Shown here: positions 7,190 through 54,565 of the stretch, in pieces
Numbering within the stretch: position 1 is the first letter of the stretch
Layout: each line of letters begins with the position of its first letter
Assembly (NCBI GenBank): GCA_000091205.1
Contig: AP006501.2
Reading direction: 5' to 3' (one strand)
DNA: 64,000 nt
From: Cyanidioschyzon merolae
Taxonomy: Eukaryota
Translations under genes and position numbers: made by a program
The notes under the pieces: generated by a model
What the model was told of the DNA's origin: nothing
The model's database searches: none
Seen by the model: only the letters and a program-made list of their open reading frames with translations

Positions 7190-8014
7190 ATGACCGGTGG
7201 CACAGCCTCGTCGGGCAAACCAGAACCATCCGATGAGCGTGAAGGTAAATCGTCTAGTGAGCCCCCTGCTCCGAAATATCGCGCGGAAGAACTGTTGGCG
7301 TGGTTGGAGTCTGCGGACCCGACGACGCGCCTCCGCGCGGTGCTCGCGTGCCGCCACCTGACCGCTGTTGAGGCGGCGCCTGTCTTGGAGAAGGCAGTGC
7401 GAATAAACGAACCCGAGGTGCAGAACCGATCCTTTGCGGCTCTCGCGCTGGGTTACTTGCCGAATGAGCGCTCGTACGAGTTGCTGTCCGGGATACTGCG
7501 TAACGATATTTCGGGCGAGGTTCGCTCGAGCGCAGCAGCAGCACTGGGGTATCTGGGCGAACGACGCGCGGTTCCCGAGCTGCGTATTGCGCTCTTGGAG
7601 GATTTTCATTGGTCAACACGGATATCTGCGGCAGTCTCCCTGGGTTTGCTCCAGGATGAACGCGCGTTTGATGCTCTGGTCGATGGTCTTCGGCTGGCGC
7701 GACGTTATCGACGCGAAGAGGGAAACGCTTTGAAGAGAGCTTGCCTGGGATCGCTGGGCGAGCTCGGGATGCCCCAGGCGGTGTCGCATCTGGTTTTTTA
7801 TGCGCAGGAGCGCGACTTTTTGACGCGCCAAGTGCTAGCCGAAGCACTCGGGCGATTGCTTCATCGAACCCGTCGGCTGGAAGCTGATCGAATGACCCAG
7901 AGGCAACTGCAACTCGCACGAGAGTGTTTGGAGTATCTGGCCCGTGATGATCATGAAAATGTCCGCCGCGCCGCCCAGCTCGCTTTGGCAAATCTTTCCG
8001 TCGTTTCCGACTGA
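7190..8014 (+). CDS. PBS-lyase/HEAT-like repeat protein; ORF track begins at 7016 but the first 58 codons are low-complexity Arg-rich, so the ATG at 7190 is preferred
   Basis: Tandem HEAT-like repeats of the form E/DxxVRxxAAxALGxLG (VRSSAAAALGYLGERRAVPELRIALLEDFHWSTRISAAVSLGLL...). Confidence 0.55.
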   Translation: MTGGTASSGKPEPSDEREGKSSSEPPAPKYRAEELLAWLESADPTTRLRAVLACRHLTAVEAAPVLEKAVRINEPEVQNRSFAALALGYLPNERSYELLSGILRNDISGEVRSSAAAALGYLGERRAVPELRIALLEDFHWSTRISAAVSLGLLQDERAFDALVDGLRLARRYRREEGNALKRACLGSLGELGMPQAVSHLVFYAQERDFLTRQVLAEALGRLLHRTRRLEADRMTQRQLQLARECLEYLARDDHENVRRAAQLALANLSVVSD

Positions 8015-8719: not shown

Positions 8720-9520
8720 TCTTTCGGTTTCAACGCACGTCGTGCGTGCAGCAATTCGCACCGCTGAATTGACGAGAAAATGGACGGGACGTCGTCCCGT
8801 GATTCCTTGTTCAACAGCTCATGCCGAAATCTGACGGGACTTTTTTTCTTTGATTCCTCACATAGGATATATGCTCCCAGAGGCTCCCGTCTTTTCTGAC
8901 CGCCTGGATAAGCGACTTGGACCTGGACTCGAGGCACCACAGCGATCGCTTCCGATCCCGAGCGCGTCAGTAATTTGCGCGAAGCGAGCGTAGGTGGATC
9001 CAAAAATTTCTCGACGTGATCTCGAGTGTGGATTTTCTTTCAGCTACTTGTTTCATCCTGAACAACATTGCGATCTACAAATCCTATATCGAATCAAACA
9101 ACATGCGTTTGCAGCGGAAAGAGTACTCGCGGAAGGGATGGCCCAATGAAAGCCCGTGATCGTAGGGCACGGCACCGGGTGCGGAAATGATGGGCGGCAT
9201 CGAGGCGAGCCTTCTGTTGAGGTACGGGTATGCAGGGTGGGATGAATCAGGCGTTCAAGCGGCACGGGTCGGCCCTCGGAAGAGGACAGGTTGGTAGACT
9301 TATAGGTGCACCTGACCACGACGAAGTGTCTCGGCTGCGAAGTGCGCTTCCAGGGATGAGTGCAAACAGGATGACAATTCCAAGCGACGTTTGTATTGCA
9401 ACAATCGCATGTGGATGAAATGGGTCAGCAACAGCTGAAGGGATCGAGAATGGGACTCGAACGCCACCACCAACATCCTTCGACTGCTGGCAACGAAACT
9501 CGAGGGGAGTGAGAGACCGG
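8720..9520. repeat. Copy B of the duplicated segment (partner of ~700..1560)
   Basis: Same conserved blocks as copy A (ATATATGCTCCCAGAG, GGATCCAAAAATTT..GATCTCGAG, CACCTGACCA, TGCGAAGTGCGC, CCAACATCCTTCGACTGC); estimated 60-70% identity. Confidence 0.7.
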
Positions 9521-11290: not shown

Positions 11291-14044
11291 TCAGTCCATG
11301 AGCAGCCGCAAGCCGCTGAGGCCAACCAGCAGCGTACCCCCTTCGTGGAGCAGGACGGCGGCCCAGAGGGGCAGACCACCCGATACCGCCCCGATGGCGG
11401 TACTCACGATCAGAATGAGCGCAATGGCTACATTCTGGGTCATGACGCGCTGCGTCTGGCGGCTCTTCTGCAGATACCATGCGATGCGACGAATGCCTTC
11501 GGGGTAGCCATCGACAAGCACCACGTCGGCAGCGGAAACCGCTGTGGCACTGTGAAAGCCGATCGAAATGCCGGTAGTGGCGAGCGCAAGCGCCGGAGCA
11601 TCATTCATGCCGTCGCCAACCATGACCAGTCGATCTGGTTGTTGTTTCACAAACAGCATTTTGTCTTCGGGACGAAGGGCGTAGCGCACGCAGTCGGCGG
11701 GCACACCAACTGCCTCGGCAATCGCCAGTGCAGTTTCTTTCGAGTCGCCAGTCAGCAGCTGCACGGAATAGCCTTGGGTTCGGAGCTGTGCGATGCACGC
11801 CGGTGCCTCTTCCCGCATCTGGTCCCAGAAAACCAGCATGGCAACGGTGCCGTCTTCGCAGCAAAGCAGGGCCGTGGAACGCCCTAGCGCAGCCTGCTCG
11901 CGCTGATACGCTTCCAGCTTTTGATCAAGCTCCCGAGTAGTGGGCGTCGGGCTCTGGGGTGCGTTTTCGTGCTCCAAGAGCGTTGCGGCAAAGTCGAGAC
12001 GCCCCAAGCGGACGCGGTGACTGAGTGCGTCAGCGCTCGCCGCGTCTAGGTGCTGGTCGCTGCCCCCGCCGTTGCTAGTGACCTCGCTCTCGGAATGCGG
12101 GGCCTGGAAAATGCGTCCTTCCAGACCGGCGCCGGCGCATACCTTCACGTCGTGGACAAGGAGCGGCTCGATGCCAAGTTCAGCGACCGAGGCAGCCACT
12201 GCGCGTCCCAATGGGTGCACCACATGCGCTTCAAGGCCAGCTGCTAAAGCCAGTACCCGCGCTATAGCTGAGGCATGCTCCGCTGGCGGGTGCTCAGCTC
12301 GCAAATCCCAACGATACGGCAGATCCTCTGAAGCAGTAGAAGTATCTGTAGCAGCGTCGCCCGTTGCTGCCATAGACGCAACGGTTACTGCTGATTGCCT
12401 CGGCACCCGAAAGACCTGGATCTGGTGGAGTTCGGGTTCTCCCTTGGTCAGCGTACCGGTCTTATCGAATGCGACTTTGTCACAACGCGCGGAGGCTTCC
12501 AGGGTGCGCGCTCCGCCCTTCACGAGCACACCGCGACGGGCCAAAACGCCCAGCGCCGATGTATACGCAACTGGTGCCCCAATGATCAGCGCACAGGGTG
12601 ATGCCACGACCATAAAGCCAAGGGCGCGTTCGAATGCCTGCCGCTGAGCGCGCCATCGTACCGGTTGTTCCTGGGGCGCCACCGCTCTAACCCCGTGCCC
12701 AGAGTGTTTCGGTGTGCGTACCGGGGTCAGACCCGCTACGATAAAGACAAGCAAAGCACCAGTGACAACAAATCGAGAGTAGAGCTGCCCGAAGCGATCG
12801 ATCCATCGCTCCAGCGTCGGTTTGTTCTGCTGTGCGTTCGTCACCAGACGGGCAATACGCGCCACTGCTGACTCGTGCACTGGTCGCTGCACGCGGAGGT
12901 AAAGCGACCCGTCGACTGTTCGAGCGCCGGCTGCAATGAGTTCCCCGTCGCGAACACGCCGCGGAACGCTCTCTCCTGTGATTGGCTCTAAACTCACATA
13001 GGCATCACCACGAGCAATCTGGCAGTCACAGGGGACCACTTCTCCGGCCTTGACGAGGATCAGGTCGCCTGGAGTCAGCTCTGTTACCGGAACTTGATGA
13101 GCGTCGACGGTATTCAGAGTTCCATTCTCCGCAACTAGTTCGAGCGGGGTGTCCGTATCGCTGGCGCGACGCAGCCGCCACGCGTACTCGGGTACGCTGT
13201 CTCGGAGAGCGTCCAGGTCGCGACGCGCTCGAGCCCGGATGGCACCCTCTGCTGCTCGCGATACCGAGAACAGCACGAATAGAAGGGTTCCTTCCAATAA
13301 ATGACCCACGGCTAACAATAGTAAAGCGGCGAGGTTCATCAACACGTCCACCGATAGAGACGGCTTACTCAACAGCGTCCACAGCATCTCGAGTAGCGAC
13401 GGCAGTCCAGATAAGACAAGACAAGCAAGAACAAAGGCGCGTTGCATGAATATCCAGCTAAAGTAGATAGCAGCGCGCTGGGTTACTCGCGGAAGAGCGT
13501 GCTGAAGCAGGGTCAGTGTGCAAGCGGCGCACCAGAGACCAGCAGACAAGCCTTGCAGCTGGAGCGAGTCCCGCCAGCCAACAAGTCGCTCGAAAGTCGG
13601 CTGCAGCGGTCCAAGAACTCGGAGCAAGCCTGTCGTGCGTGAACCAGCACCAACTGCGTCCTGAGCGCCGCAGCATGGAGCAGCGTAGGCCTGCGCTTCA
13701 GACGAGCGTGGAGACGCGGTTGCGCTTCGCGTGCCACTGCTCTCGAGTGCGTGGCGTTTCTTTGTTGGCTCAGAATCATTGTGACACTGAACAGCGTACC
13801 GAATCGTAACAGCGCCGCGTCGTCTACTCAGCTTCGTGGCTGCGGTTGCGTGCTCGCCGTCAAGTCGCGTACGCCGCTGGTGAAACGGGTGACACCCACG
13901 GAACCTCCTTCGATCGAGTTCCCAGCCGCAATGAAGACGGGATATCGGAACCCATTTCACCTGAAAAGCCCAAGTTGACATACTCGATAAAGAGCGTGCC
14001 ACTCGGCAACACACACTCGTTGCCGGGCCCGTGAGGAACAGCAC
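11291..14044 (-). CDS. P1B-4-type heavy-metal (Zn/Co/Cd) transporting P-type ATPase (HMA1/CtpD-like); first ~150 codons lack a recognisable metal-binding domain and may include UTR or transit sequence
   Basis: DKTGTLT phosphorylation motif, TGES-like actuator region (ITGESVP), VGDGMNDAPALA hinge, membrane SPC motif (ASPCALIIGAP) and HEGGT motif (LLHEGGTLLVG), which together are diagnostic of the P1B-4 subgroup. Confidence 0.85.
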   Translation of the reverse strand: MLFLTGPATSVCCRVARSLSSMSTWAFQVKWVPISRLHCGWELDRRRFRGCHPFHQRRTRLDGEHATAATKLSRRRGAVTIRYAVQCHNDSEPTKKRHALESSGTRSATASPRSSEAQAYAAPCCGAQDAVGAGSRTTGLLRVLGPLQPTFERLVGWRDSLQLQGLSAGLWCAACTLTLLQHALPRVTQRAAIYFSWIFMQRAFVLACLVLSGLPSLLEMLWTLLSKPSLSVDVLMNLAALLLLAVGHLLEGTLLFVLFSVSRAAEGAIRARARRDLDALRDSVPEYAWRLRRASDTDTPLELVAENGTLNTVDAHQVPVTELTPGDLILVKAGEVVPCDCQIARGDAYVSLEPITGESVPRRVRDGELIAAGARTVDGSLYLRVQRPVHESAVARIARLVTNAQQNKPTLERWIDRFGQLYSRFVVTGALLVFIVAGLTPVRTPKHSGHGVRAVAPQEQPVRWRAQRQAFERALGFMVVASPCALIIGAPVAYTSALGVLARRGVLVKGGARTLEASARCDKVAFDKTGTLTKGEPELHQIQVFRVPRQSAVTVASMAATGDAATDTSTASEDLPYRWDLRAEHPPAEHASAIARVLALAAGLEAHVVHPLGRAVAASVAELGIEPLLVHDVKVCAGAGLEGRIFQAPHSESEVTSNGGGSDQHLDAASADALSHRVRLGRLDFAATLLEHENAPQSPTPTTRELDQKLEAYQREQAALGRSTALLCCEDGTVAMLVFWDQMREEAPACIAQLRTQGYSVQLLTGDSKETALAIAEAVGVPADCVRYALRPEDKMLFVKQQPDRLVMVGDGMNDAPALALATTGISIGFHSATAVSAADVVLVDGYPEGIRRIAWYLQKSRQTQRVMTQNVAIALILIVSTAIGAVSGGLPLWAAVLLHEGGTLLVGLSGLRLLMD

Positions 14045-14204
14045 CTTGCCGCACTGTCGCTAGGGATGCAGTTTCTAGATAACGTTTCCAGAGGGCAGCG
14101 ATGAGTCTCCGTGCGCGGATGCGCGTCCTCATCGCTTGAGCATCGTGATCGCCCGCCGTTGTACCACTGGCGATCATCCGCTGCGCGTACACGTATACCA
14201 GTGC

Positions 14205-15231
14205 GTGTCCATGGATGCTTTTCTACATGCATGCCTATACGTGTCCAATGGTATGTATCCATGTCCATGGGTGCTTTTCTACATGCACGCCTTTACGTGT
14301 CCAACGGTATGTGTCCGTGTCAATGGATGCTTTTCTACATGCATGCCTATACGTGTCCAATGGCATGTATCCGTGCCCATAGATGCTTTTCTACATGCAT
14401 GCCTATACGTGTCCAATGGCATGTATCCGTGCCCATGGATGCTTTTCTACATGCATGCCTATACGTGTCCAACGGTATGTGTCCGTGTCCATGGATGCTT
14501 TTCTACATGCATGCCTATACGTGTCCAATGGTATGTATCCGTGTCCATGGATGCTTTTCTACATGCACGCCTATATGTGTCTAATAATATGTGTCCGTGC
14601 CCATGGGTGCTTTTCTACATGCACGCCTATATGTGTCTAATAATATGTGTCCGTGCCCATGGGTGCTTTTCTACATGCATGCCTATACGTGTCCAATGGT
14701 ATGTATCCGTGTCCATGGGTGCTTTTCTACATGCACGCCTTTACGTGTCCAACGGTATGTGTCCGTGTCAATGGATGCTTTTCTACATGCACGCCTATAT
14801 GTGTCTAATAATATGTGTCCGTGCCCATGGGTGCTTTTCTACATGCACGCCTATATGTGTCTAATAATATGTGTCCGTGCCCATGGGTGCTTTTCTACAT
14901 GCATGCCTATACGTGTCCAATGGTATGTATCCGTGTCCATGGGTGCTTTTCTACATGCACGCCTTTACGTGTCCAACGGTATGTGTCCGTGTCAATGGAT
15001 GCTTTTCTACATGCACGCCTATATGTGTCTAATAATATGTGTCCGTGCCCATGGGTGCTTTTCTACATGCACGCCTTTACGTGTCCAATGGTATGTATCC
15101 GTGTCCATGGGTGCTTTTCTACATGCATGCCTATATGTGTCTAATAATATGTGTCCGTGCCCATGGGTGCTTTTCTACATGCATGCCTATACGTGTCTAA
15201 TAATATGTATCCGTGTCCATGGGTGCTTTTC
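14205..15231. repeat. 56-bp tandem minisatellite, ~18 copies, with a 4-unit (~224 bp) higher-order periodicity
   Basis: Direct observation: unit GTGTCCATGGATGCTTTTCTACATGCATGCCTATACGTGTCCAATGGTATGTATCC and variants recur with a 56-bp period (e.g. ATGGATGC at 14211, 14267, 14323). Confidence 0.95.
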
Positions 15232-19744: not shown

Positions 19745-20035
19745 AAGAGGAAGCAGAAGCAGAAGCAGCAGCAGGTTGAGCTAACGTTCATCAAGGCAAC
19801 TACACACTGATCTACCTTTGTTTGATGACTACGGCAGTAGAAATGTCGCCACTAGGAAGCAGTAGCAGGAGGTTGAGCTAACATTCAACAAGGCTACTAC
19901 AAACTGATCTATCTTTTTTAGATGACTACGGCGGCAGACAAGTCTCCACTAGGAAGCAGCAACAGGTCGAGCTAACGCCGATGAAAGCAACTACATGCAA
20001 TACCCTTGATAAGTGACGACTGCAACAGTTGTGCA
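19745..20035. repeat. ~96-bp tandem repeat, 3 copies
   Basis: GAGCTAAC anchor recurs at 19778, 19875 and 19969; each unit contains GTTGAGCTAAC...ACTGATCTA...GATGACTACGGC...CCACTAGGAAGCAG. Confidence 0.85.
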
Positions 20036-36181: not shown

Positions 36182-37105
36182 TCACGTGAGGGATTGCTCG
36201 CAATCATTCGATTCCCGGTCCGGTTCCGGTCTCATGTCTGAGACTTGACACACCAGTTTGGGTTCCAAAATGTCCTTCGCTGATTGGATCAGTGCGAGTT
36301 CCGGTGGGACCCCTGCTTCAACAATCTCTCCCTCATCCAGGGTTCGCCGCAGCACATGGTACACTGTTGAGAACGCGTATTCCACAGCTTGTTGGAGATT
36401 TGGTACCCGAGCGCTCCACGCTAGCAGAAGCGCTGCAGACAGATCGCCGGTGCCGGTGAATGATCCGGGCAACCGTGACGGAAGCTGGAACCACTTGCTT
36501 TGTTTCCGAAGCGCTTCCGAGAGGTACACGCAGGGACGTTGGTGCTCGTCTGCCTCTGCACCGGTGACCACAATGACAGGCACCTGGTAATGCGTATGCA
36601 GCCAATGGCAGGCACGTTCGATGTCGGTCTCATGCGGTACGAGAAGTTGAAGCTCGTACGCGTTCGGAATAATTAAGTGCGCCCTTGGAATTAGAATATC
36701 TCGATAGGCCTCGACCATTTCGGGAGGCACGTAGAGCCGTCCGTTGTCGCCTAGAACCGGATCGCAGAGGTACCAAACCGGCTCCTGACCGGCTCTCTCC
36801 GAGTTAAGAAGGTCAATAAGCTCGCGAACGACCTCCAGGAGCTCGCGAGACCTAATATACCCTGTTAACAGGTGCGTTACGCTTTTTAAAAGCCCATTCG
36901 GTAGGAGGCCGTTCCAAACGATTCGTCGCAGCTGCTCGGCGGTGAGACTCTCCCCGGCTTTGTGGCGATATCCCGTGTGGTTCGCAAAGTGCACCGTGTT
37001 GACAGGATCCACGTCCCAGCCGAGCAATTGTAGAGGAAACGTAGCTGCTTTCTGACCCACATAGCCGTGCACCACGTGCGACTGCACGCTGAGTACCCGG
37101 GGCAT
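36182..37105 (-). CDS. PDXK: Pyridoxal kinase (PdxK, ribokinase superfamily); ORF track extends 5' to 37318 but homology begins at the ATG at 37105
   Basis: N-terminal signature MPRVLSVQSHVVHGYVGQKAATFPLQLLGWDVDPVNTVHFANHTGY matches pyridoxal kinases; C-terminal GTGDLSAALLLAW ATP-binding region. Confidence 0.85.
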   Translation of the reverse strand: MPRVLSVQSHVVHGYVGQKAATFPLQLLGWDVDPVNTVHFANHTGYRHKAGESLTAEQLRRIVWNGLLPNGLLKSVTHLLTGYIRSRELLEVVRELIDLLNSERAGQEPVWYLCDPVLGDNGRLYVPPEMVEAYRDILIPRAHLIIPNAYELQLLVPHETDIERACHWLHTHYQVPVIVVTGAEADEHQRPCVYLSEALRKQSKWFQLPSRLPGSFTGTGDLSAALLLAWSARVPNLQQAVEYAFSTVYHVLRRTLDEGEIVEAGVPPELALIQSAKDILEPKLVCQVSDMRPEPDRESNDCEQSLT

Positions 37106-37450
37106 GAAGAGCGTACACCAGGAAGCGCGAGAAGTTGCCACGCGAGCGCCTTGGTGGCCGTGCGCGAACGCAGAAGCAAAGCAGCGTATAGATAGGAGGC
37201 GTGGTGAGTGCTCGCGGCAGGCTATATACCCGGAATAACGTACGAGCAAACTGCCAGATCCGGAGGAAAGTATGGTTGGTGGTGTTGCTTGTTGGAACTT
37301 GGTGGTATGGCGCAGCATGACGGTCGCGGATCACGGTCGCGCAACTGCGTATTCCAGGTTTATGTATCAGCAATCCTACGCTCTAAGAAAACGTTCAGTC
37401 GATGGACTCGAAACAGACGGCTAACTACGACGCCGAATATACTCGCCGGG

Positions 37451-37886
37451 TCGTCGATGGTATTCACTGCATTATCCCCATCGACGGAACGTTGATACAG
37501 CGCTGTACTAGTCTTCTGCACGATGCATATCGGTCGTCGATCATATTCACTGCATTATCCCCATCGACGGAACGTTGATACAGCGCTGGACTAGTCTTCT
37601 GCACGATGCATATCGGTCGTCGATCATATTCACTGCATTATCCCCATCGACGGAACGTTGATACAGCGCTGGACTAGTCTTCTGCACGATGCATATCAGT
37701 CTTCGATGGTATTCACTGCATTATCCCCATCGACGGAACGTTGATACAGCGCTGGACTAGTCTTCTGCACGATGCATATCGGTCGTCGATCATATTCACT
37801 GCATTATCCCCATCGACGGAACGTTGATACAGCGCTGGACTAGTCTTCTGCACGATGCATATCAGTCTTCGATCATATTCACTGCG
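37451..37886. repeat. 83-bp tandem repeat, ~5.25 copies
   Basis: CATTATCCCCATCGACGGAACGTTGATACAGCGCTGGACTAGTCTTCTGCACGATGCATATCGGTCGTCGATCATATTCACTG recurs with an 83-bp period (CATTATCC at 37470, 37553, 37636, 37719, 37802). Confidence 0.9.
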
Positions 37887-38071: not shown

Positions 38072-40837
38072 ATGGTAGAACGTCAACTCTTACCGAAAAC
38101 GGTTCGACCGCTTTTATATGATATCACTCTCGAGCCGGGACTGGAGCCTCGTCTACACGAGTCGGTGGCGACTTCTGACGGCGTTACGAGCGAGACGAGC
38201 GCTCCAGCGGGGCCACCAGCTGGATCGCCACAACACCCAGGTGATACTGAAGACGAAGATGCAGCGTTTACTTTCCAGGGACAGGAGACTGTTGAACTCG
38301 AGGTGCTCGAGGACACGAGCTCCATCGTTCTCAACGCACTTGAGCTAAAAATTCACAGTGCGCGCCTCAACGGCGTGGAAGCACACAGCATCACCAGTGA
38401 CCCTGACGCTCAGACAGCTCGCCTGGAGTTTGGCCAAAAGTTTGCAGCTGGAACACGGGTGCGGTTGGAGCTGACCTTCCAGGGTATTCTGAACTCGAAA
38501 ATGGTCGGATTCTATCGAGCAAAATATCAGGATCCAGAGAGCGGCACTGTCAAGTATATGGCTGTGACGCAGTTTGAACCGACCGATGCGCGGCAAGCTT
38601 TCCCCTGTTGGGACGAGCCCGCGCTCAAGAGCCGGTTCCGGATAACTCTCGTGATTCCATCGGATCGGCAGGCGATCTCGAATATGCCAGTGGAGCAGGA
38701 GACCGTTCGGACCTCGGATGGGCGGAAGGTTGTTCGCTTTGAAGAGACACCTCTCATGTCGACGTATCTCGTAGCGTTTGTCGTGGGAGAGTTCGATTAT
38801 GTCGAAGGGCGCACCGCTGAAGGTGTACAAGTCCGAGTTTACACGCAGAAAGGAGTAGCTCATCAGGGCGCTTTCGCGCTCGATTGTGCCGTCAAAGTGC
38901 TTTCGTATTTCACCGAGTTTTTCGGTACACCGTATCCGCTCCCGAAAGAGGATCTAATCGCTGTTCCGGATTTCGCGGCTGGTGCTATGGAGAACTGGGG
39001 TTGCATCACATTCCGAGAGACCGCGTTACTATTGGACCCGGAGCGGAGCGCTGCAAGCGCTCGTTCCCGCGTTGCCGAGGTCGTCGCACATGAGCTTGCA
39101 CATCAATGGTTTGGGAATCTGGTGACGATGGAATGGTGGACGCATTTGTGGCTGAACGAGGGCTTTGCAACCTGGGCCGCAGAACTTGCCGTCGATCATC
39201 TCTTTCCCAGCTGGCAGCAATGGATGCAGTTTGTTTCAACGACGTTTGCAGCGGCGCTGCGATTGGATGCGCTACGCTCGTCGCACCCGATCGAAGTGGA
39301 GGTCGCTCGTGCTCAGCAAGTCAATGAAATTTTTGATGCAATCTCGTACTGTAAGGGAGCTTCCGTTATCCGCATGTTGGCAAACTATCTGGGTCTCGAA
39401 GTTTTCCGCAATGGCCTCTGTCGTTATCTCAACAAGTTTACGTACGGGAATGCGAGCACGGATGATCTGTGGCAGGCGCTCGAAGAGGAGTCTGGCAAAC
39501 CGATATCCCATATGATGCGTTCGTGGACGCGTCAGACTGGCTATCCTGTGATTTATTTTGATGATGCAAACATGATCGTTCGGCAAGAGCGTTTTCTGGC
39601 GGATGGCGGAAGCGTTTCCCATACATCTCGAGTGAATACGAACGCGGACAGCGACTCGAATACAGCACCGACGCACTGGGTCGTGCCCCTGGGCATGATG
39701 GATAGCAGTCAACCAGCAGTGCCGCGCTACTTCCTGCTCGATGCGAAGCAGGCAGAGCTTCAGTCGATATTGGGAACGGCGTCGAATGCTTCGGAGCAGC
39801 GCTGGATCAAGATGAATCCGCACCAGACTGGTACGTATCGCGTGAATTACACCCCAGAAATGTGGCAACGCCTAGTGGAGCCCATCCAGACCAAGGTGCT
39901 CGGCGCAACCGATCGACTTGGACTCGCCATGGACGCATTCGCCTTGACGAAGGCTGGCATTCTGCCGGCGTCTGTTGCTCTCCAAATGCTCGCAGCGTTT
40001 TCGAAAGAAGACGATTATGCATGCTGGCTCGACGTGGTTGGCTCTCTCGGAGAGCTCGGAGCGGTTTTCGCGTCCGACGAGCCCTCGCTACGGTCGCAGT
40101 TTGACCGCTTTGCCTGTGATCTCATGCGCTACACTGCTGAACGCATCGGATGGAAACCGGAACCCAACGAGGAACACGTTACCGCGTTACTGCGGTCGCT
40201 TCTGCTTGGGGCACTCGTGAAGCACGCCGATTCGAGCACTGTGAACGAAGCTCGCCGGAGCTGGAAGGCCGAACAGGACGGAACGGATCGTGTCCCGGCA
40301 GATCTTCGACTCGCAGTCATGTCTGCGGTCGTCCAGTACGGTACAGATGCGGATTTTGATGCAGTACTGCAAGCGTACGCCCAAGCGGTTATGGATGAGG
40401 AGCGGGTGCGCTGTATTCGTGCCCTCGGTTGTACGCGCGACCCGGCCAAAATCCGTTGGTTGCTCGACTGGGGTCTTGATCGTTCTCAGGTCAAGTCTCA
40501 GGATGCGATTTACGTCTATTCGACGCTGGCTGCGAACACGGACTCTGGACGTCGAGCCACCTGGCAATACCTGCGTGAGCATTGGTCGACCTTTTATCAG
40601 CGGTTTGGGAAAGGCAACTTTCTCTTGTCGAGCTTCGTTTCCTCGATACTCAGAGACTTTTCTTCTGAAGAAGCAGCTGAGGAAGCTGAAGCGTTTTTTG
40701 CCTCCATCCCAGACAAGGAGCGGGAGAGTATCCAGCGCACCATCCAGCAGAGCACTGAGCGCATTCGCGCGAATGCGGCGTGGCGCCAGCGGGACATGCA
40801 CGCCGTTCGGGCGTGGCTTGCAGAACGCTGCGGCTGA
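38072..40837 (+). CDS. M1-family zinc aminopeptidase (aminopeptidase N / puromycin-sensitive aminopeptidase-like); ORF track begins at 37964, the ATG at 38072 is preferred
   Basis: GAMENWG exopeptidase motif, HELAHQWFGNLVTMEWWTHLWLNEGFATW (HExxH-x18-E zinc site), ERAP1-like C-terminal domain. Confidence 0.9.
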   Translation: MVERQLLPKTVRPLLYDITLEPGLEPRLHESVATSDGVTSETSAPAGPPAGSPQHPGDTEDEDAAFTFQGQETVELEVLEDTSSIVLNALELKIHSARLNGVEAHSITSDPDAQTARLEFGQKFAAGTRVRLELTFQGILNSKMVGFYRAKYQDPESGTVKYMAVTQFEPTDARQAFPCWDEPALKSRFRITLVIPSDRQAISNMPVEQETVRTSDGRKVVRFEETPLMSTYLVAFVVGEFDYVEGRTAEGVQVRVYTQKGVAHQGAFALDCAVKVLSYFTEFFGTPYPLPKEDLIAVPDFAAGAMENWGCITFRETALLLDPERSAASARSRVAEVVAHELAHQWFGNLVTMEWWTHLWLNEGFATWAAELAVDHLFPSWQQWMQFVSTTFAAALRLDALRSSHPIEVEVARAQQVNEIFDAISYCKGASVIRMLANYLGLEVFRNGLCRYLNKFTYGNASTDDLWQALEEESGKPISHMMRSWTRQTGYPVIYFDDANMIVRQERFLADGGSVSHTSRVNTNADSDSNTAPTHWVVPLGMMDSSQPAVPRYFLLDAKQAELQSILGTASNASEQRWIKMNPHQTGTYRVNYTPEMWQRLVEPIQTKVLGATDRLGLAMDAFALTKAGILPASVALQMLAAFSKEDDYACWLDVVGSLGELGAVFASDEPSLRSQFDRFACDLMRYTAERIGWKPEPNEEHVTALLRSLLLGALVKHADSSTVNEARRSWKAEQDGTDRVPADLRLAVMSAVVQYGTDADFDAVLQAYAQAVMDEERVRCIRALGCTRDPAKIRWLLDWGLDRSQVKSQDAIYVYSTLAANTDSGRRATWQYLREHWSTFYQRFGKGNFLLSSFVSSILRDFSSEEAAEEAEAFFASIPDKERESIQRTIQQSTERIRANAAWRQRDMHAVRAWLAERCG

Positions 40838-52437: not shown

Positions 52438-52625
52438 ATCTGTGCAGGCTCCATTGTCATCCGCGCAACACATAAACTGCACCTCGGGTAGCCAGTCAGG
52501 TATCCGCGTCGGCGGTCGATAGCGCATGTAGCTAACAAGCATCTGTGCAGGCTCCATTGTCATCCGCGCAACACATAAACTGCACCTCGGGTAGCCAGTC
52601 AGGTATCCACGTCGGCGTTCGATCG
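52438..52625. repeat. ~103-bp direct repeat, 2 copies
   Basis: ATCTGTGCAGGCTCCATTGTCATCCGCGCAACACATAAACTGCACCTCGGGTAGCCAGTCAGGTATCC... occurs at 52438 and again at 52541. Confidence 0.8.
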
Positions 52626-52909
52626 CGTCCAGAGGTGCTGCCTGTTCCACGCCTATACCCCAGCTGTCATACAGAGACAACGCCCAGCAGCAGCATACCG
52701 CAGATTCGCCAGCAGCTCGAGTGCTGCGCCACGTGGCTGGCGCTGCTGCGCGGAGAACGCGCCTGCGTCTCCAGAACGCTAGATCTTCGGCACCAATCGC
52801 TCCCAACAGGCGGCAGGGTATCGCTGGCACGTGTGGGGTTCCCCCCCAGAGCCAGTTACTTGTCCGTACGCAGTCAGTTGTCGCGATCGACGAAAACAGT
52901 GACGTGTCG

Positions 52910-54565
52910 ATGAGCTTCGCGGCAACGGCAACGATGACGAGTGCGGGTCGAGCAACGCCGGCGACCTTCGACGGGAACCCAGCACCGGACCGAAAGCTCC
53001 TCGTGGAACCAGGGGACGCTGCCGCCCTTTCAAGAGTGGAGGCGGATCCTCGTGTTCGGTACAATCCCCTTGCACCCATAGGGGAGGGCGCTTTTGGTAT
53101 GGTCTATCGCGCTCTGGACACTGAAACGCAAACCGTTGTCGCTGTGAAAGTCATCAACCTGGACGAGTGTCACGACGAGATCGAGGGAATTCAGCAGGAA
53201 GTTACCGTCATGGCTCAGTTGAACACGGCACACGTTGCAAAGTACTATAGATCTTTTCTCGTGGGGCCTGAGCTCTACATCGTGATGGAGTACGTGGATG
53301 GTGGCTCTGTTCGGGAGCTGATGGAGTTTCTCGGCGGGAGGCTCTCTGAAGACATCATCGCAGTGATCGCCCGCGGTCTCGTGGAGGCGCTCGTTCACTT
53401 GCACGCTCAGAACAAACTGCATCGCGACGTGAAAGCCGCCAACGTCCTCTTGACCACGACAGGCGACGTTAAGCTGGCAGACTTTGGGGTAAGCGGGACG
53501 CTCACCTCGACTTTTCGGAAGCGGAACACCATGGTTGGGACGCCCTACTGGATGGCCCCCGAAGTCATACGTGAAAGCGCTTATGATGAGAAAGCAGATA
53601 TCTGGTCGCTGGGCATTGCGTGCTACGAAATGGCTACCGGCTTGCCACCGTATGCCGATTTGCACCCGATGCGCGCGCTCTTCCTGATTCCGAAGAGCGA
53701 GCCGCCGCGACTGCCCGAAAACGATGATGGATCCTCGCCGTGGTCTGCAACTTTTCAAAATTTCCTCTCATGTTGTCTTCAAAAGTCACCGACTGAACGC
53801 GCTACCGCTGCAGCGCTGCTTGAACATCCGTTCTTGCGCTGCGGTCCAGAAGCAAAATCGCAACTCAGCGAACTCGTGCAGCGAAAAGTGCGAAACCAGC
53901 AGATCCTGACGATGCCTTTAGCAGCGGGCAAGACGGGTACCGAGCCTGTCCCATCAAAATCATCGTCTTCGAGTGCATCGGTGTCTTATCATCCACCGAC
54001 GTCACATTCATCATCAGGGGAGCCTCATCCCTCGGCTTCGGTGGGCGGCAGCCTGTCCCGCTGGGACGACTCGCTCGGTCTCGACGAATATCTGGCTGCC
54101 TCGCAGCGCGCTCTGGATCGAACGCAGTGGCGCTACATGAGCATTCCACGTCCCAACACGATCGTTGCGGGTCGTACAGCGTCATTGATGGCGACGAATT
54201 CGCGACAAACAGGTCCGCCGCATGAAATCCAGTCATGGACCTTCGACTCGAACGAGAGTGGCAGCGTCTTGATCACGAACGCTCCGGGATGCACCTGGAC
54301 TGGGGAAAATTCCCAACTGACGCCTTCACCGTCGCATCCGATGTTCTGCTATTTGCTGGAACCCGCGATCCGGCGTCTTGTTGCGAAGTACGCCAATGAG
54401 GGGACCGATGCGAATGGTCCCGAGCTTGCACGCCTCCTCCATAGTATTTTGGCGCAGTTTCAGCGAATGGAGTGCATTCGGCCCGGTGCGAGTTGTGCAT
54501 TCATCAAAGAGCTCATGGCTGCCGTACAGCAAACACGCCTTCCAGAGGGTGATCATGCGCAATGA
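52910..54565 (+). CDS. STE20-family (GCK/MST-like) serine/threonine protein kinase; ORF track begins at a GTG at 52721, the ATG at 52910 is preferred
   Basis: GEGAFGMVYRA (Gly loop), VAVKVI (VAIK), HRDVKAANVLL, DFGVSG, and the STE20 signature GTPYWMAPEV; non-catalytic C-terminal region. Confidence 0.85.
   Translation: MSFAATATMTSAGRATPATFDGNPAPDRKLLVEPGDAAALSRVEADPRVRYNPLAPIGEGAFGMVYRALDTETQTVVAVKVINLDECHDEIEGIQQEVTVMAQLNTAHVAKYYRSFLVGPELYIVMEYVDGGSVRELMEFLGGRLSEDIIAVIARGLVEALVHLHAQNKLHRDVKAANVLLTTTGDVKLADFGVSGTLTSTFRKRNTMVGTPYWMAPEVIRESAYDEKADIWSLGIACYEMATGLPPYADLHPMRALFLIPKSEPPRLPENDDGSSPWSATFQNFLSCCLQKSPTERATAAALLEHPFLRCGPEAKSQLSELVQRKVRNQQILTMPLAAGKTGTEPVPSKSSSSSASVSYHPPTSHSSSGEPHPSASVGGSLSRWDDSLGLDEYLAASQRALDRTQWRYMSIPRPNTIVAGRTASLMATNSRQTGPPHEIQSWTFDSNESGSVLITNAPGCTWTGENSQLTPSPSHPMFCYLLEPAIRRLVAKYANEGTDANGPELARLLHSILAQFQRMECIRPGASCAFIKELMAAVQQTRLPEGDHAQ

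Follow-up and report, generated by a model that had tools for sequence, protein, structure and literature searches.

A copy-number-variable 56-bp minisatellite in the spacer upstream of an HMA1-like metal ATPase gene of Cyanidioschyzon merolae

Vinces and colleagues reportedly found in 2009 that unstable tandem repeats in promoters modulate gene expression in yeast. The closest described counterparts of the tandem array that we analyze here, which lies on chromosome 19 of Cyanidioschyzon merolae 10D, are the classical hypervariable minisatellites or VNTRs of the Jeffreys type. Like these, the array has a unit within the 10-100 bp range that is repeated head-to-tail and in register, interspersed unit variants that give allele-specific 'maps', a copy number that differs among close genomes with near-identical flanks, and a single location at which it appears to change by the gain or loss of whole units or blocks. 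Unlike the classical examples, it is found in a unicellular red alga with a genome of 16.5 Mb, its unit is not GC-rich and is devoid of a chi-like core, and its allele sizes are read from assemblies, not from genotyping. A second set of comparable elements is furnished by the unstable promoter tandem repeats that modulate expression, as reviewed for yeast (PMC3899988) and as documented in the form of eQTLs of human promoter tandem repeats (PMC4857002). The array resembles them in lying within about 1 kb upstream of an environment-facing gene with a copy number that varies between strains; the resemblance is thus one of position and copy-number variation, and not of a link between copy number and expression. 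Moreover, the yeast repeats are mostly short, AT-rich and nucleosome-excluding, whereas the unit of the array is 56 bp long, mixed in composition and free of poly(dA:dT). Furthermore, Cho et al. report that the intergenic regions of C. merolae are enlarged by repeats, at 12.7% of the genome versus 0.59% in the sister lineage Cyanidiococcus (PMC9812998). Taken alone, the array adds a further minisatellite to a genome whose intergenic regions were already known to be expanded by repeats, and it belongs to a well-known class as an ordinary, probably promoter-proximal minisatellite. We propose that it is probably a locus-specific, hypervariable and near-neutral VNTR in a repeat-prone spacer, that the transcription-factor-site names that can be attached to its unit are by-products, and that any effect that it has on the HMA1-like gene would be indirect.

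The array is embedded in a 2,385-bp spacer between two minus-strand genes (Table 1) of the 64,000-nucleotide stretch of DNA that was analyzed as a whole (hereafter the window). Three of the proteins that the window encodes match the C. merolae 10D proteins BAM82911, BAM82912 and BAM82915 exactly, and the genome is compact, nearly intron-free and of about 55% GC. The gene downstream of the spacer, BAM82913, is annotated as a 'probable metal-transporting ATPase' and contains the Pfam E1-E2_ATPase and Hydrolase domains. It displays the P-type core motifs (DKTGT at 506 and GDGMND at 789) together with SPC at 461 and HEGGT at 879, near the C-terminus, a combination that marks it as a P1B-4 (HMA1-like) pump; its matches in the PDB include ZntA and the P1B-4 pump sCoaT (7qbz). 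Hanikenne and Baurain had likewise placed the SPC-type protein of C. merolae in subgroup IB-4, along with Arabidopsis HMA1 (PMC3922081). Thus, the P1B-4 metal ATPase label given to this gene by the first-pass annotation, and the placement of the array in its 5' flank, are both borne out. The ATPase open reading frame (11291-14044, minus strand) runs 21 codons upstream of the annotated ATG as a GTG-initiated frame, and metagenome gene callers vary in the start that they choose (718, 752, 896 or 905+ aa), such that the true N-terminus and the transit peptide of the ATPase are uncertain. The upstream neighbor, BAM82914, combines a DNMT1-RFD domain (Pfam E 1.8e-11) with weak DDT/WSD-type helical domains and is syntenic in all four genera examined; its annotation as 'similar to inner centromere protein' looks doubtful. 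The two genes bear consecutive accessions and hence no gene is annotated between them. An RNA gene or structured element was rejected as an account of the array, as the spacer and the array contain no Rfam family at E <= 1 and no tRNA, and the single-strand DNA fold of the array has a z-score of -1.5, which is not significant. Relative to the ATPase start codon the array spans roughly -222 to -1250, and its gene-sense strand contains 46 ATG triplets. As all of these would be added upstream in the transcript, the array is unlikely to be a part of the 5'UTR, and we infer from the sequence that transcription of the ATPase gene probably starts within the unique 222-bp segment, leaving the array upstream of the transcription start site.

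Table 1. Positions of the array and of the features that surround it in the window
Feature	Position	Strand	Basis or remark
HMA1-like P1B-4 metal ATPase BAM82913, 896 aa	11291..13981	-	Annotated CDS; motifs; PMC3922081
Unique 222-bp region, from the array to the ATPase start codon	13982..14203	-	Likely core promoter and 5'UTR
56-bp minisatellite	14204..15231	.	18 full units and a 20-bp partial unit; TRF, unit table, composition
Recent exact block duplication within the array	14547..15076	.	14547-14852 = 14771-15076; lag 224 bp
Non-repetitive rest of the 2.4-kb spacer, as far as the upstream gene's stop codon	15232..16366	.	No RNA family, tRNA or repeat found
Upstream neighbor BAM82914, 1083 aa	16367..19618	-	3' end bounds the spacer

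Tandem Repeats Finder (TRF) recovers the array as 18.4 copies of a 56-bp unit with 90% matches, 0% indels and a score of 1531, and every unit contains one copy of a 21-nt core, TGCTTTTCTACATGCAYGCCT (18 occurrences in all), which is found nowhere else in the window and of which none is expected from shuffling. Hence, the 56-bp, approximately 18-copy array that had been claimed at these coordinates is real. It extends for about 1 kb in a head-to-tail fashion, maintaining perfect register over 18 units without indels, and its GC content is 46% as against about 55% for the window. No degenerate units were detected past the TRF boundaries, with only 21 of 56 positions matching in the left flank and no match past the 20-bp partial unit in the right flank. 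When cut in register, the array of 10D resolves into 13 unit types in the order ABCDEAFGHIJGHIJKLM. Transitions account for 12 of the 14 variable columns, several of them being CpG<->TpG changes, and the observed/expected ratio of CpG is 0.80 in the array versus 1.19 in the window, with an enrichment of TpG in the array. The plus strand of the array has a bias of T over A (362 T versus 194 A), and the array resembles a degenerate CATG/CGTG/TG-rich tract, with a pure (GT)n being seen at a comparable position in Cyanidium. A literature search on C. merolae tandem repeats found nothing specific to the 56-bp array.

We then examined the internal variation of the array, for which a higher-order repeat of four units (about 224 bp) had been suggested. 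The sequence of units 8-11 recurs without change in units 12-15, resulting in an exact match at a lag of 224 bp over 306 bp; outside the duplicated block the identity at lag 224 (0.902) is the same as that at lag 56 (0.903). This exact block duplication is therefore the sole source of the apparent 224-bp period. The array does share with higher-order-repeat satellites, such as the alpha satellite, the presence of a repeated multi-unit (4 x 56 bp) block. Unlike in these, the block is present only twice and in exactly identical form, pointing to a single recent event, no 224-bp or other multi-unit periodicity extends across the array, and the whole amounts to 1 kb at one locus, not a genome-wide family.

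The first-pass annotation had further described the array as packed with E-box/ABRE-like, CCAAT and RY motifs, and each unit as containing ACGTGTC, CCAAT and CATGCATG, which would make it an enhancer-like cluster of ABRE/CCAAT/RY triplets. Strings identical to those of the seed-plant ABRE, RY and CCAAT modules do occur in some units. However, ACGTGTC is present in 12 of the 18 units, CATGCATG in nine, CCAAT in seven and CCATGG in 14; the first three coincide in only six units, and neither the CANNTG E-box nor the canonical CACGTG G-box is found anywhere in the array. The most polymorphic columns of the unit (29, 37, 43 and 46-48) are precisely the ones that make or break the named motifs; the stretch of the unit that is invariant is GCTTTTCTACATGCA. 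The repeats that sister genera have in the orthologous spacer, described below, are likewise devoid of these motifs. Red algae in general do have members of the bZIP and NF-Y families (PMC4827209); as to genes of the RY-binding B3 factors, Romanel et al., in a dedicated search that included C. merolae, report them only from Chlamydomonas and Volvox and none from C. merolae (PMC2688026). Given that the motifs are not conserved within the array, are absent from the orthologous repeats, and bear names borrowed from seed-plant biology, the ABRE/RY/CCAAT reading is unsupported.

In order to be called a VNTR, a minisatellite has to differ in copy number between alleles with conserved flanks. Environmental contigs of up to 133 kb, about 99% identical to 10D and carrying the same genes, are present in several collections (JGI 3300005573 and 33000503xx; ENA ERZ272472xx; Logan SRR31784488; designated L001-L018 and L021). 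The array is a systematic point of breakage or collapse in short-read contigs, many of which stop just before it or inside it. The contigs that span it, with flanks about 99% identical, contain 7.4 (L007, the 133-kb contig), 8.4 (L008) and 12.4 (L018) copies versus 18.4 in 10D, and a further contig (L009) has at least 10.6 copies before it ends; as the environmental alleles come from short-read metagenome assemblies, array collapse may have led to some under-counting. The corresponding allele lengths are 412, 468, 692 and 1028 bp. All alleles start at the same first base and end in the same terminal 20-bp partial unit, and 10D, L007 and L008 have their last two full units in common, without any difference. 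In the interior, the order of the units and some of the unit types differ between alleles, and artefacts of assembly cannot account for such differences in unit sequence. Thus, the suspected copy-number variability of the array is supported, subject to the above caveat on assemblies, with the differing order of unit variants and the restriction to one locus in the scanned contigs and the window completing its resemblance to a VNTR. The gene-distal end of the array is common to three alleles and the gene-proximal end occurs in two haplogroups, which in alleles derived from assemblies is too weak a pattern to claim polarity.

In light of these observations, we posit that the array changes by in-register slippage or by unequal exchange between units, whereby whole 56-bp units or multi-unit blocks would be gained or lost, the exact four-unit duplication perhaps being an instance of the latter. 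Both routes are available in view of the efficient homologous recombination of C. merolae and of the meiotic recombination that has been shown in the group (PMC13353863). Point changes, which are mostly transitions and include several CpG<->TpG exchanges, would spread or vanish by the same turnover, thereby keeping the units homogenized. The plant-style motifs could then be understood as by-products of a CATG/CGTG-rich founder unit and not as selected binding sites. The array as a whole would form part of the intergenic repeat expansion characteristic of C. merolae, in a spacer that might, throughout the Cyanidiales, have an unusual tendency to duplicate in tandem, and any consequence for the HMA1-like gene would be likely to arise via promoter spacing or local chromatin.

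The principal rival to this proposal is that the array is a copy-number-tunable promoter element, the array itself or the repeat-proneness of its spacer being maintained since changes in repeat number adjust the expression of the HMA1-like gene to the local metal conditions, a possibility that we consider unlikely on present comparisons. It would fit with the location of the array, which reaches no further than about 1.25 kb upstream of the ATG of a transporter gene that faces the environment, with the variation in copy number among environmental alleles, and with the precedents for promoter tandem repeats as modifiers of expression cited above. However, the bases that make up the named motifs are the least conserved of the unit. 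Furthermore, in a compact genome an intergenic tandem repeat will often lie upstream of some gene, and hence the association with a metal pump is not informative in itself. The evidence that does favor tuning over neutrality comes from a single source, namely the recurrence of tandem repeats at the same position in related algae.

The order of genes around the pump (V-ATPase c, the RFD protein, the HMA1-like ATPase, a 3-beta-HSD-like protein, a HEAT protein and a transketolase-like protein) is conserved in Cyanidiococcus yangmingshanensis (L023), in another species resembling Cyanidiococcus (L024, with coding DNA 72-79% identical to that of L023) and in Cyanidium caldarium (L025). The orthologous spacers were compared in these three and in a fourth relative that is 91% identical to C. 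caldarium (L029). The spacers of the first three (1086, 918 and 802 bp, respectively) show no blastn similarity to the C. merolae spacer and contain no 56-bp unit. Each nevertheless contains a young tandem duplication of its own: 105 bp x 2.0 with 95% matches in C. yangmingshanensis (7427-7633), 72 bp x 2.0 with 98% in the second Cyanidiococcus-like species (7401-7543), and 118 bp x 2.3 with 100% in C. caldarium, accompanied by a (GT)22 tract (7298-7565 and 7707-7750). In L023 and L024 this duplication is the only TRF match in 18 kb. The orthologues, in Cyanidiococcus and Cyanidium, of a control spacer, the one that carries an 83-bp array in C. merolae (37449-37885), yielded no tandem repeat with a score of 100 or more in 68 kb. 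The result was not repeated in the pre-specified test on L029, in which the 118-bp element is single and the only minisatellite lies elsewhere; its spacer does contain a degenerate (AC)~30 tract (9274-9332) and a (TG)n run. Thus, tandem duplications are found at the orthologous spacer in three of the four relatives, and they are unrelated in sequence to each other and to the 56-bp unit.

Under random placement of the single minisatellite of each lineage within the non-coding DNA that was sampled, the length-weighted probability of all three falling into the pump spacer would be about 6.5e-4, and by a hand calculation that of at least three out of four relatives about 0.004, both being post hoc figures from a small sample of four relatives. 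These recurrent, unrelated duplications in sister genera are the only unexpected element of the locus. They suggest, within the limits of a post hoc statistic and a small sample, that the spacer upstream of the HMA1-like gene is repeat-prone with a high turnover; they could also reflect selection on the promoter and not mutational bias alone, and in this respect they count against the near-neutral VNTR that we favor. Set against tuning, the repeat units of the four lineages share no motif beyond the shuffled expectation, and the relatives have only about two copies, with L029 having but a single copy of the element. No 8-mer is common to all four spacers, which also lack G4 motifs, and a 'CCCATCGAC'-like similarity among the units of the different lineages, which had been noticed by eye, proved to be no better than that seen in shuffled sequences.

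A stronger form of the same idea would regard the spacer as a conserved tandem-duplication hotspot across the Cyanidiales, the instability of which has been used by selection to tune the expression of the metal pump to the metal load of each hot spring. It would bring together the 56 bp x 7-18 arrays of Cyanidioschyzon, the 105-, 72- and 118-bp duplications of about two copies in Cyanidiococcus and Cyanidium, and the (CA)n/(GT)n tracts, as the 'tuning knob' of a promoter in an extremophilic alga whose transcription factors are very few. We hold this to be improbable, more so than the plain tuning reading. The recurrence of repeats in the spacer would matter if it stems from a conserved site that is fragile or recombinogenic, or from selection that favors an adjustable HMA1 promoter, a question that can be put to a direct test, as the genome of C. 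merolae can be manipulated by homologous recombination.

A chromatin role may be envisaged in several forms, such as the positioning of nucleosomes (three units amounting to 168 bp), the nucleation of H3K27me3, or an insulator between the terminator of the upstream gene and the HMA1 promoter. It is possible in principle, given that about half of the repetitive elements annotated in C. merolae lie under H3K27me3, a mark that correlates with repression (PMC5405695), and the array also stands apart from its surroundings in its lower GC content and in a raised purine-pyrimidine alternation (0.67 versus 0.52 for the window). However, the published H3K27me3 targets are annotated transposon and WSV-like repeats and not minisatellites. 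A strict 56-bp period yields harmonics of 11.2 or 9.3 bp only, not a rotational signal of about 10.3 bp, and offers three equivalent translational phases. Furthermore, none of the alleles of 7.4, 8.4 and 12.4 units amounts to a whole number of three-unit blocks, and the array contains neither poly(dA:dT) tracts nor G4 motifs. The equation of 168 bp with the nucleosome repeat is numerology, and we accordingly assign the chromatin readings as a group a very low probability.

The first-pass annotation had also raised the possibility of a satellite relic and recommended a search for the unit elsewhere. An exact-pattern scan of JGI metagenome contigs returned six matching contigs: the three algal ones all represent the array locus, and the other three are chance matches in unrelated contigs, with a single match each and no other similarity to the window. 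No second copy of the unit is present elsewhere in the 64-kb window. Accordingly, within the contig collection and the window the unit is specific to one locus of about 1 kb, and no abundant, multi-locus family with long arrays was seen; the genome-wide abundance that the first-pass annotation had named as a refuting outcome is thus not borne out by this collection. That the array is nonetheless a dispersed or centromeric satellite, or the relic of one, would be in keeping with its tandem organization over about 1 kb and with a GC content below that of its flanks; it is made highly improbable by the confinement of every algal contig with the unit to one locus, together with the lack of an array-wide higher-order period, the absence of a marked AT-rich dip in the window, and the conservation and synteny of the flanking genes in four genera.

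The least credible reading, to which we give almost no weight, is that the array encodes a Cys/His/Met-rich repeat protein on the plus strand, divergent from the metal ATPase (ORFs of 215-242 aa): the consensus unit is indeed free of stop triplets on that strand, as had been noted of the array, with ORFs of up to 242 aa, and Cys, His and Met abound in the translated repeats, beside a metal transporter, but 5.8% of composition-matched shuffled units are equally stop-free (P ~0.06), the real array contains 15 plus-strand stops (2, 6 and 7 in the three frames), every one of them contributed by unit variants of the TAATAA type, 56 bp is not divisible by 3 and the alleles of different length end up in different frames, and the ORFs are unannotated, absent from a collection of 15 billion proteins and matched in Pfam by sub-threshold noise alone. 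These ORFs were therefore rejected as coding.

The array also has a practical use in marking strains or populations of C. merolae-like algae in metagenomes from hot springs, and it explains the breaks of short-read contigs at its position. The window contains four minisatellites in all, with units of 56, 97, 83 and 103 bp, every one of them in 5' intergenic DNA. The 97-bp repeat is an older one (2.5 copies, 79% matches, 19762-19995) in the divergent spacer between BAM82914 and the gene for the V-ATPase c subunit; it lies 4.5 kb from the array and, unlike the latter, is stable at 2.1-2.5 copies in four environmental alleles. The 83-bp repeat (5.3 copies, 96% matches) is well preserved and occupies the spacer from which a minus-strand gene (36182-37318) and a gene for an M1 aminopeptidase (38072-40837) diverge, and the 103-bp one is a tandem duplication of 1.8 copies with 96% matches (52438-52627) that lies upstream of a plus-strand ORF (52910-54565).
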